Below, piece by piece: positions 26,862 through 27,066 of a stretch of DNA of 64,000 nucleotides. The stretch comes from Escherichia phage vB_EcoM-VpaE1, in the sequence record KM657822; one strand, 5' to 3'. Made by a program: the position numbers and the translations under genes. Every line of letters starts with the position of its first letter. The stretch's first letter is position 1. The notes beneath the pieces are model-generated. The model ran no database searches. It was not told the DNA's origin and saw only the letters and a program-made list of their open reading frames with translations.

Positions 26862-27066
26862 AACCTTAGTTTTCGTTGCGTAGCGTCTATTTTGCAAATT
26901 TAAAATAAATGCAAACGACAATGTTTTTCTGGCAGTAGCTTGATAGGCTAAACACCAGTGAGGTCTTCCAATCCCTCATCAAAGAATTTGGCGTACTAGC
27001 CCACGGTATGATTAATAAGGTGGGCATCTTTAAGGGCTTTCTAAGAGAGAGTCTTTAAAGATTAAT

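Follow-up and report, generated by a model that had tools for sequence, protein, structure and literature searches.

A widespread phage RNA that appears to join an arm antisense to host tmRNA to a tmRNA-like tag template

Introduction

Escherichia phage vB_EcoM-VpaE1 (sequence record KM657822) is a Felix O1-like myophage of the genus Felixounavirus, and the 64,000 nucleotides (nt) of its DNA analysed here, which we call the window, contain a cluster of tRNA genes. A first-pass annotation of the window had drawn attention to two stretches of this cluster that hold no tRNA. Here we present the first of these (stretch 1), which lies between tRNA-Ile and tRNA-Arg, as an RNA gene in its own right rather than a spacer, with a presumably stable product and homologues in many unrelated phages. 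Judged from its sequence, the stretch-1 RNA is a chimera, in which an arm of approximately 28 nt, antisense to the transfer-messenger RNA (tmRNA, the product of ssrA) of the host, precedes a compact copy of the mRNA-like domain of tmRNA, and its tag reading frame is under coding selection. The RNA probably blocks or reprograms ribosome rescue in the host. Our best reading, to which we give a little less than even weight, is that in docking on host tmRNA it would cover the tag template found there and put forward its own.

Results

A conserved RNA gene behind a sigma-70-type promoter

ARAGORN finds 25 tRNA genes on the plus strand between positions 25483 and 30320, of which 23 are confirmed by Rfam at gathering score, and over 26150-28400 the window shares 97.7% identity with Escherichia phage Andreotti and with Shigella phage JK55. 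The strong promoter that the first-pass annotation had placed at 26833 is real: TTGACA (26833-26838) and TATAGT (26856-26861), separated by a 17-nt spacer, form the top sigma-70-like site within 24000-32000, a region that overall shows no enrichment for such sites (15 against 16.6 expected). The tRNA-Ile gene ends at 26817 and tRNA-Arg starts at 27067, leaving 205 nt without a tRNA after the -10 element, in good agreement with the 'about 200 nt' previously described. Independent sigma-70 promoters stand at equal spacing from the conserved 5' end of the RNA in Erwinia, Klebsiella and Salmonella phages (loci L034, L037, L038 and L085). From the promoter spacing, transcription is predicted to start at approximately 26868, while RNase P, cutting at tRNA-Arg, presumably generates the 3' end; we infer an RNA of approximately 160–195 nt, expressed from its own promoter and stopping at or before this cleavage site. 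The variable hairpin of the predicted fold that adjoins tRNA-Arg (Table 1) may be a processing or insulating element.

Folding of stretch 1 compared with shuffled sequences gives z = -4.58 (z = -2.98 for the second stretch). Its core is 89–100% identical within Ounavirinae, and stretch 1 is 100% identical in Felixounavirus LF82P3; in divergent relatives it is better kept than the adjacent gaps and tRNA-Arg (95.7% against 82–85% in L023). Sensitive blastn matches the central 95–125 nt in 659 phage records from unrelated groups, with homologues in Ounavirinae, Erwinia Kolesnikvirus, Kuttervirus (Vi1-like), Gamaleyavirus (N4-like), Akiravirus, Klebsiella and Salmonella siphophages, and P1. Scanning IMG/VR for an exact pattern recovered at least 120 contigs with the element, and these matches together with fetched loci make up the family set of 152 instances and 88 unique sequences used below. 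A covariance model (R1), built from 39 representatives, scores 147.6 bits on the window, which was in the seed, and 93.8 bits (E = 1e-18) on P1, which was outside it; the model finds no second copy within the window and does not match E. coli ssrA.

In P1 the element occupies 68889-69068 of NC_005856, where it is unannotated, in the leader of the C1-controlled ban operon; the order there (L171, NC_005856 68791-69423) is a 'dicF-like region', the element with tag ANDDLMMVAA, tRNA-Asn and tRNA-Thr. With a prophage-type member as query, matches were obtained in 691 of 5426 complete E. coli genomes, and in 137 of these they cover at least 80% of its length; most lie on phage-plasmids of approximately 95 kb, and prophages carry them too. 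Among the 25 matches listed, none is annotated as RNA, 21 are unannotated and four overlap a hypothetical protein, as which the RNA is sometimes mis-annotated. When one genome per species was scanned with the pattern there were ten matches, of which a Pseudocitrobacter prophage is the sole true member, the other nine being chance occurrences inside coding sequence. Literature searches, which were incomplete in coverage, yielded no description of the RNA.

Could stretch 1 be an ordinary precursor spacer or leader of the tRNA operon, giving no stable or functional product? Its position between a promoter and a tRNA would suit this, and the hairpin at 27026-27062 could then be a processing signal. 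Yet within Ounavirinae stretch 1 is at least as conserved as tRNA-Arg; it is present in unrelated phages, often with no adjacent tRNA (77 of 151 loci have none within 2.5 kb downstream); and, as described below, four of its helices covary and an internal frame is under selection. The element is conserved apart from tRNAs, and we regard the spacer explanation as highly improbable. The suggestion of the first-pass annotation that the two stretches may encode small RNAs or leader sequences is supported: both behave as conserved structured RNAs, stretch 1 being an RNA gene rather than a tRNA leader.

The same annotation had described stretch 1 as free of open reading frames (ORFs), which is nearly right; one mechanical ORF of 46 amino acids runs along the minus strand at 26887-27027 and is annotated as hypothetical in phage LinBro. 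In 62 of the 88 unique family members the longest minus-strand ATG ORF is shorter than 20 amino acids or absent, so the 46-residue ORF is not conserved. The mechanical GTG ORFs of the second stretch (27443-27640 and 27559-27705) are ruled out as genes by 1–2-nt indels in relatives. That such ORFs exist, and that some are annotated in GenBank records, might recommend a small protein gene at either place, but we find this barely credible, as the substitution patterns fit RNA helices instead.

On siphophage and prophage contigs (L034, L036, L037, L039-L041, L048, L050 and others) the element sits within arrays of structured modules. These are flanked by conserved stems, CACAACAGGUAAGAGCAUU...AGUGCUCUUUCCGUUGUGG, and their inserts are diverse and sometimes tRNA-like; some are common to Felixounavirus hairpins, for example CCCUUAUGGGGCUUGGCUUAAAUGCA, and none was recognised as a known family.

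A ten-codon tag frame in a tmRNA-like context

The window RNA reads AUAAAU followed by GCA AAC GAC AAU GUU UUU CUG GCA GUA GCU UGA UAG, which may be set beside E. coli ssrA (read from NC_000913.3, its numbering checked on L159), where AAUAGUC is followed by GCA AAC GAC GAA AAC UAC GCU UUA GCA GCU UAA UAA. In E. coli tmRNA, U85 and A86 are the nucleotides that set the frame. Every family member has AUAAAU followed by GCA; the block ATAAATGCAAA is invariant in the alignment of the family (A1), but was also the search pattern. The tag begins at this resume codon with neither a start codon nor a Shine-Dalgarno sequence, and its stops lie in the loop of a hairpin whose outer stem covaries.

The tag frame is under coding selection. 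It contains exactly ten sense codons in 152 of 152 instances and the encoded peptides, of which there are 17, follow the pattern AN[DE]xxx[LR]x[AV]A, among them ANDNVFLAVA, ANDDVVLMAA, ANEEMYLAVA and ANDDLMLMAA. Across the 29 unique tag sequences, synonymous changes make up 28% of the codon differences in the tag frame, against 2.5% and 8% in the other two, which are interrupted by stops in 26 and 23 of the sequences respectively. Codon 11 is always a stop, spelled TAA in 26 sequences, TAG in two and TGA in one.

Searches with existing models recognise this region in part. In a covariance-model search, one of the checks proposed in the first-pass annotation, no Rfam family reaches threshold on either stretch, but tmRNA-type models align at the stretch-1 tag, both in the window and in five foreign phages, always below gathering score: 14.3 bits for RF00023 and 32.5 bits for RF04321 in the window, each against a gathering score of 47, and 11.7–33.1 bits in the other phages. 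ARAGORN reads ANDNVFLAVA with both stops in two relatives. Taken with the helices described next, these features suggest that the 3' two-thirds of the stretch-1 RNA resemble the mRNA-like domain of tmRNA.

Helices and pseudoknots supported by covariation

Four helices, including one from a pseudoknot, were tested in alignment A1. Of their cells, 98.5% pair, against 31–49% when the partners are slid; compensatory change is seen in 11 of 19 pairs, and compensatory cells number 92 compared with 24 ± 7 in shuffles. The outer stem of the helix-5-like hairpin covaries, G-C being replaced by A-U in 16 of 39 sequences, while its inner stem (UAGC 26936-26939 with GCUA 26947-26950) was identified by eye only. 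Downstream of the tag are two pseudoknots, both with covariation support. Stem 1 of pseudoknot a is 99.5% paired with three covarying pairs, and its stem 2 is 100% paired with two (CCGA/UCGG, CCAA/UUGG and CCAG/CUGG). Pseudoknot b, with the conserved linker AUUAAUAA, has three covarying pairs in stem 1 and at least eight complementary versions of stem 2, ranging from 4 to 8 base pairs (bp). No pseudoknot is supported upstream of the tag, where the antisense arm lies instead.

A 5' arm antisense to host tmRNA

At its 5' end the RNA carries the motif (U)AGUUUUCG(U), with a 7-nt core, GUUUUCG, in 151 of 152 instances. This arm aligns with the reverse complement of E. coli ssrA, which stood in for the host in every comparison, and its target, nt 81–106, reads AAAAUAGUC followed by GCA AAC GAC GAA AAC UA. 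The target thus takes in U85/A86, the resume codon and the first six tag codons, to which longer arms add the 3' strand of pseudoknot 1. In the window the local alignment (UAGUUUUCGUUGCG-UAGCGUCUAUUUU against UAGUUUUCGU--CGUUUGCGACUAUUUU) scores 28, and none of 300 shuffles does as well; the same is true in five of six subtypes, with P = 0.003 in the sixth. The aligned span is nt 80–107 in the Erwinia type, whose arm variant is GUUGAGUAUGCUUC, and nt 68–106 in the Klebsiella, prophage and Kuttervirus types. In the Klebsiella type the arm ends 22 nt before the phage resume codon, just as far as nt 68 of ssrA lies from the host resume codon, a correspondence seen by eye that may be coincidental.

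A Watson-Crick core of 7–12 nt at ssrA nt 96–108, that is, tag codons 3–6 (GAC GAA AAC UAC), is found in 88 of 88 members (shuffle P = 0.01–0.0008), and in the window amounts to a 10-nt run at nt 97–106. Short duplexes between arm and tmRNA are predicted at -16 to -26 kcal/mol. When the first 30 nt were set against the whole tmRNA, the best predicted duplex ended at approximately nt 105–107 in 43 of 44 sampled members, with a mean of -29 kcal/mol and z = -2.3 to -3.1. We relied on Watson-Crick runs, 30-nt duplexes and reverse-complement alignment because two other measures failed: full-length RNAduplex runs against tmRNA are meaningless, as long loops are allowed, and contiguous pairing that admits G-U is not significant for so U-rich an arm.

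Two other explanations of the motif were rejected. It is not a sense homologue of the tmRNA D-loop analogue, since alignment with the ssrA sense strand is not significant (P = 0.37–0.9). Nor does it pair with UAGAAACUG or with the start of its own tag, because the variants AAACGA and AAACGG are uncompensated and self-complementarity is weak. In all 88 members the arm fits the host better than its own tag region (mean score 28 against 11), and phage and host sequences differ precisely at positions -4 to -1 and in codons 4–6. We conclude that the arm is directed at the host; it has remained fixed as the sense copy diverged.

No tRNA-like domain

The stretch-1 RNA has no acceptor stem, T arm or CCA end. 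A tRNA-like domain was sought with ARAGORN (in the window and at 151 loci), with Rfam (in the cluster, the window and five foreign loci) and by eye upstream and downstream, and the results were negative or spurious: ARAGORN calls no tmRNA in the window or in L034-L038, and Rfam at a permissive threshold finds nothing else tmRNA-like in the whole window. The Rfam tmRNA alignment spans only positions 56–294 of the 374 in the model. In four phage lineages the sigma-70 promoters stop 6–8 nt before the conserved 5' motif, so there is no space for a 5' acceptor strand, and there is no consistent tRNA neighbour across the 151 loci. Two 'permuted tmRNA' calls by ARAGORN among those loci, the only calls it makes on the RNA, are spurious, the tag having been stitched to the T arm of a module approximately 550 nt upstream. 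The 'GCUCCAC' ends in prophage arrays, considered as tRNA-like ends, are really hairpins with a conserved ACGAAAC loop and covarying stems.

These results bear on whether the RNA might be a genuine but unusual tmRNA, with a tRNA-like domain that was overlooked, being either a second piece encoded elsewhere or one formed with neighbouring tRNA-like modules such as the permuted one at 26303-26440. The two permuted calls do join the tag to a T arm and GCCA end in this YrlA-like module, element-bearing phage arrays are rich in tRNA-like fragments, and in Kuttervirus a UCCA-ended tRNA-like structure follows the element. But three tRNAs and a promoter separate the candidate module from the element, and in the window its acceptor stem is closed by a 4-nt loop and lacks the G3:U70 alanine identity pair; half of the loci, as noted, have no tRNA nearby downstream; and the 5' end, where an acceptor strand would be expected, is instead antisense to host tmRNA. 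We therefore think a complete tmRNA very unlikely.

The Kuttervirus structure is a long one, directly after the element at approximately 2140–2390 of L035 (Salmonella phage PhiSH19), with GGGUUCGACUCCC in its T arm and UCCA at the end of its acceptor 3' strand; ARAGORN makes no call on it.

A second structured RNA

The other stretch singled out by the first-pass annotation, at 27460-27725, does exist, as a 256-nt gap between tRNA-Ser and tRNA-Leu, but is not promoter-proximal as had been claimed: the consensus scan gave no promoter-like site in front of it, the nearest being at 27254-27282 with 9 of 12 matches. Homologues occur in 252 phage records, all from Felixounavirus-like phages or close relatives, and stretch 2 has no match in E. 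coli genomes on either strand and no Rfam family. We interpret it as an independent conserved structured RNA.

Its near-invariant core is kept even in relatives whose gap is otherwise just 82% identical, and since the core hardly varies, covariation is uninformative for its predicted helices. The hairpin at 27627-27648 preserves its stem (GACC, GGCC, GACU) but has a loop of variable sequence and length. With the U run behind it, it resembles a weak terminator or the 3' end of a small RNA (sRNA), and stretch 2 is possibly an sRNA that ends here. The long hairpin adjoining tRNA-Leu shows many compatible changes that alter one partner only, along with a single compensatory pair (U-A to G-C, in three sequences), and its tip is substituted in divergent relatives. 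A replaceable 5' hairpin and a conserved hairpin at 27523-27538 complete the stretch.

Other elements of the cluster

The cluster has further tRNA-free gaps at 25645-25735, 25813-25897, 26155-26583, 27144-27381 and 28135-28229. It follows an ORF of 471 amino acids (23902-25317) that matches DUF2828 and DUF7788. The homologue in phage Bas63, gp130, is reported to be structurally Ro60-like and to counter the ppl defence system (PMC11482910), and the same study speculated that some of the 'tRNAs' may be Y RNAs (PMC11482910). The Ro60 likeness rests on that work; a sequence search of the ORF product against PDB gave no match (E > 1).

Four paralogous elements in the gaps, 0.3–1.1 kb downstream of the Ro60-like ORF, resemble Y RNAs. 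They share a covarying lower stem of 3–4 bp (GAC/GUC, UAC/GUA, AGC/GCU), an asymmetric internal loop AGA/G and an upper stem AGACCnn/nnGGUCU around a variable interior. The plus strand of the window holds exactly four copies of AGAAGACC and four of GGTCTGG, all in these elements, which Rfam YrlA does not match. Their position after the Ro60-like ORF makes them better Y RNA candidates than the annotated tRNAs. The fourth stem (26305-26433) encloses a circularly permuted tRNA-like module, which is the architecture of YrlA, in the order T arm (26355-26375), acceptor 3' strand ACUCGGC, 4-nt loop, acceptor 5' strand GUCGAGU and D arm. In the relative L021 a GCCA is encoded behind the acceptor 3' strand, and ARAGORN mistakes the module for the acceptor piece of a permuted tmRNA.

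The gap 27144-27381 holds two features (27163-27201 and 27285-27371, plus strand), a variant stem, AGACGACC...GGUGGUCUG, and an odd tRNA-like sequence on which neither ARAGORN nor Rfam makes a call. The acceptor stem of the latter is possibly 8 bp long, its T loop is UUCAACU, its 'anticodon' loop of 9 nt is CUUCCAACA, and it ends in GCCA. Long plus-strand hairpins at 26437-26579, 27026-27062 and 27644-27719 close each long gap and adjoin tRNA-Lys, tRNA-Arg and tRNA-Leu respectively; the latter two share sequence like UUAGAGGGCUUCUAAG, and all may serve in processing or insulation, perhaps as RNase III sites. Close relatives vary in the tRNAs that their clusters contain, and relatives have HNH homing endonuclease genes between tRNA genes, as between tRNA-Tyr and tRNA-Asp in Andreotti (L002 995-1423); the window has no HNH gene at that site (26071-26077). 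On the minus strand, a group I intron model matches 62731-62821 weakly and below threshold (24 bits, where the gathering score is 50; E = 0.06).

Table 1. Features of the tRNA cluster described in the text, in window coordinates
Feature	Position	Strand	Remarks
Sigma-70-type promoter TTGACA-17-TATAGT	26833-26861	+	11/12 consensus matches; conserved in relatives
tmRNA-like / anti-tmRNA RNA gene (stretch 1)	26868-27062	+	Homologues by blastn and covariance model; predicted ends
Core of stretch-1 RNA	26867-27025	+	Followed by terminal hairpin 27026-27062
5' arm antisense to host tmRNA nt 81-106 (predicted)	26867-26894	+	Alignment to ssrA reverse complement
Resume-codon context AUAAAU	26905-26910	+	Read from sequence; U at -5, A at -4
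Tag frame GCA AAC GAC AAT GTT TTT CTG GCA GTA GCT	26911-26940	+	ANDNVFLAVA; intact in 152/152
Tandem stops UGA UAG	26941-26946	+	In loop of helix-5-like hairpin; codon 11 a stop in 29/29
Helix-5-like hairpin	26929-26958	+	Outer stem CUGG 26929-26932 / CCAG 26955-26958
Pseudoknot a	26959-26991	+	Stem 1 UGAGG 26959-26963 / CCUCA 26974-26978; stem 2 loop CCAA 26968-26971 / UUGG 26988-26991
Pseudoknot b	26992-27025	+	Stem 1 CGUACU 26992-26997 / GGUAUG 27005-27010; stem 2 GCCCAC 26999-27004 / GUGGGC 27020-27025
Variable hairpin adjoining tRNA-Arg	27026-27062	+	Predicted fold; other hairpins substitute in relatives
Second structured noncoding RNA region (stretch 2)	27472-27727	+	Felixounavirus-like phages only
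Near-invariant 86-nt core with three small hairpins	27545-27630	+	7 variable positions in 26 unique sequences
Hairpin AAAGGCC-loop-GGUCUUU and U run	27627-27648	+	
Long hairpin adjoining tRNA-Leu	27644-27719	+	RNAalifold
Four paralogous Y-RNA-like elements	25653-25723, 25820-25883, 26217-26289, 26305-26433	+	In other cluster gaps
DUF7338 protein gene, 185 amino acids	28403-28960	+	Within tRNA cluster
DUF7217 protein gene, 265 amino acids	29349-30146	+	Within tRNA cluster; mechanical ORF start overlaps tRNA-Phe

Discussion

To our knowledge, trans-translation is the only way of reading a frame that has neither start codon nor Shine-Dalgarno sequence, and it needs an alanyl-tRNA-like domain together with SmpB. 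Selection on the reading frame and on its resume context argues that ribosomes do read the phage tag. As reading it needs a tRNA-like domain and SmpB, neither of which this RNA brings, while it does have a docking arm for tmRNA, a swap of templates is the mechanism we favour. On its own, the RNA would neither be charged nor enter the ribosome. Its 5' arm would dock onto host Ala-tmRNA-SmpB, the host resume site and tag template would become duplex, and the phage resume site and tag template would be presented beside the host tRNA-like domain; rescued proteins would then receive a tag specified by the phage, from what would amount to a two-piece tmRNA assembled in trans. That ribosome rescue is reprogrammed in trans, so that the products of stalled ribosomes are given a phage tag, we put forward as a tentative proposal, possible but somewhat short of an even chance.

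The principal alternative is a pure anti-tmRNA inhibitor, in which the arm, paired with the host resume site and tag template, blocks trans-translation or triggers cleavage of tmRNA and the phage tag is never translated, the tmRNA-like 3' domain being only a stabilising scaffold, or a decoy for SmpB, ribosomal protein S1 or RNase R. This would draw on the same complementarity to the host and on the same absence of a tRNA-like domain, and it has a precedent in idea in mycobacteriophage DS6A, whose tmRNA consists of the tRNA-like domain only and is thought to inhibit by titrating SmpB (PMC4131195). A scaffold or decoy needs no frame, yet ten codons are kept in every instance, with an excess of synonymous change and three spellings of the stop, and the U(-5)A(-4) resume context is retained as well. 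Inhibition alone thus accounts for the arm but not for the frame, and we consider it unlikely, if far from negligible.

Several points weigh against a template swap. The antisense match was spotted post hoc, though it is statistically strong and consistent across subtypes, and the arm is broken by mismatches and indels, pairing in the window with approximately 23 of the 26 host positions and carrying an insertion of 2 nt and a deletion of 1 nt. E. coli ssrA served for all hosts, and the target region is presumably identical in Salmonella, Klebsiella and Erwinia; all hosts would then present one target sequence, which leaves covariation between arm and target uninformative. An inverted duplication could have left the arm as a relic, a possibility countered by its strict conservation beside a diverged sense copy. 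In the L006, L013 and L016 types of Felixounavirus, other sequence stands in place of the upstream promoter. We know of no precedent for the template-swap step itself, and pairing along the host mRNA-like domain might do no more than inhibit rescue. Finally, a swap would bring the phage no obvious gain, for its tags keep ssrA-like traits: they open with AAND, are aromatic or aliphatic at position 7 and close with AVA or MAA, and they remain degron-like, these ends resembling LAA and LVA.

The stretch-1 RNA shares with one-piece tmRNA (SsrA, RF00023) a GCA resume codon after U(-5)A(-4), a ten-codon tag that begins AND or ANE and ends in small hydrophobic residues, stops in a helix-5-like loop, pseudoknots downstream of the tag and sequence similarity around AUAAAUGCAAACGA. 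It differs in its want of an acceptor stem, T arm and CCA, in having an antisense arm where pseudoknot 1 would stand and two supported downstream pseudoknots rather than three, in its length (approximately 160 nt against 363 nt), and in its scores, 14–33 bits where 47 is the gathering score, R1 for its part failing to match ssrA. Of the Rfam models, those for two-piece, circularly permuted tmRNA, known from alpha-proteobacteria and cyanobacteria (RF04321, RF01849), come closest, though below threshold, at 22–33 bits; the match in the window borrows the T arm of tRNA-Ile. If the proposed mechanism holds, the likeness would extend to a template and a tRNA-like domain on separate, paired chains. 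In true two-piece tmRNA, however, a single gene supplies both pieces, which are joined by helices of the tRNA-like domain, whereas the partner here would be a whole host tmRNA, with pairing antisense to the host tag template.

Among other RNAs, DicF and the anti-sRNAs of enterohaemorrhagic E. coli (EHEC) are base-pairing RNAs of phages and prophages that act on host RNAs. The stretch-1 RNA likewise has a conserved 5' end predicted to pair with a host RNA, and in P1 it directly follows the 'dicF-like region'; it is unlike them in that its target would be tmRNA rather than an mRNA or sRNA, in its long complementarity of 23–35 nt, and in carrying a translatable tag template. The tRNA cluster of phage T4 encodes two stable RNAs of unknown function, species 1 and 2 (rnaC and rnaD). 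By analogy, both stretches may be noncoding RNAs situated among phage tRNA genes and freed by tRNA-processing enzymes. Neither stretch has the AGAAGACC...GGUCUGG stem of the Y-like elements or an Rfam YrlA match. The tmRNA Website survey records phage ssrA only in mycobacteriophages and Bacillus phage G, and in no enterobacterial phage (PMC4131195). With Bxz1, Bacillus phage G and DS6A (PMC4131195) the present phages would share the carriage of a tmRNA or part of one. Those earlier examples possess the tRNA-like domain, DS6A having only this half, thought to interfere with the host system, and the stretch-1 RNA represents the opposite half plus an antisense arm.

Regardless of mechanism, these sequences constitute a well-defined RNA class, with 88 unique members, a conserved micro-ORF and two pseudoknots. 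If the proposed template swap is correct, it would represent the first naturally occurring tag template supplied in trans to the tmRNA of another genome, present in P1, Felix O1-like, Vi1-like and N4-like phages and many enterobacterial siphophages. It would offer a means of testing whether the tRNA-like and mRNA-like domains need to be physically linked and how the resume codon is chosen, and possibly a tool with which to alter the ssrA tag in trans, leaving the chromosome untouched. Ribosome rescue by tmRNA-SmpB would then be a direct target of phage–host conflict in enterobacteria, and the agent would be an unannotated RNA of model and therapeutic phages, including P1, Felix O1 and Bas63 relatives, Kuttervirus and G7C-like phages.

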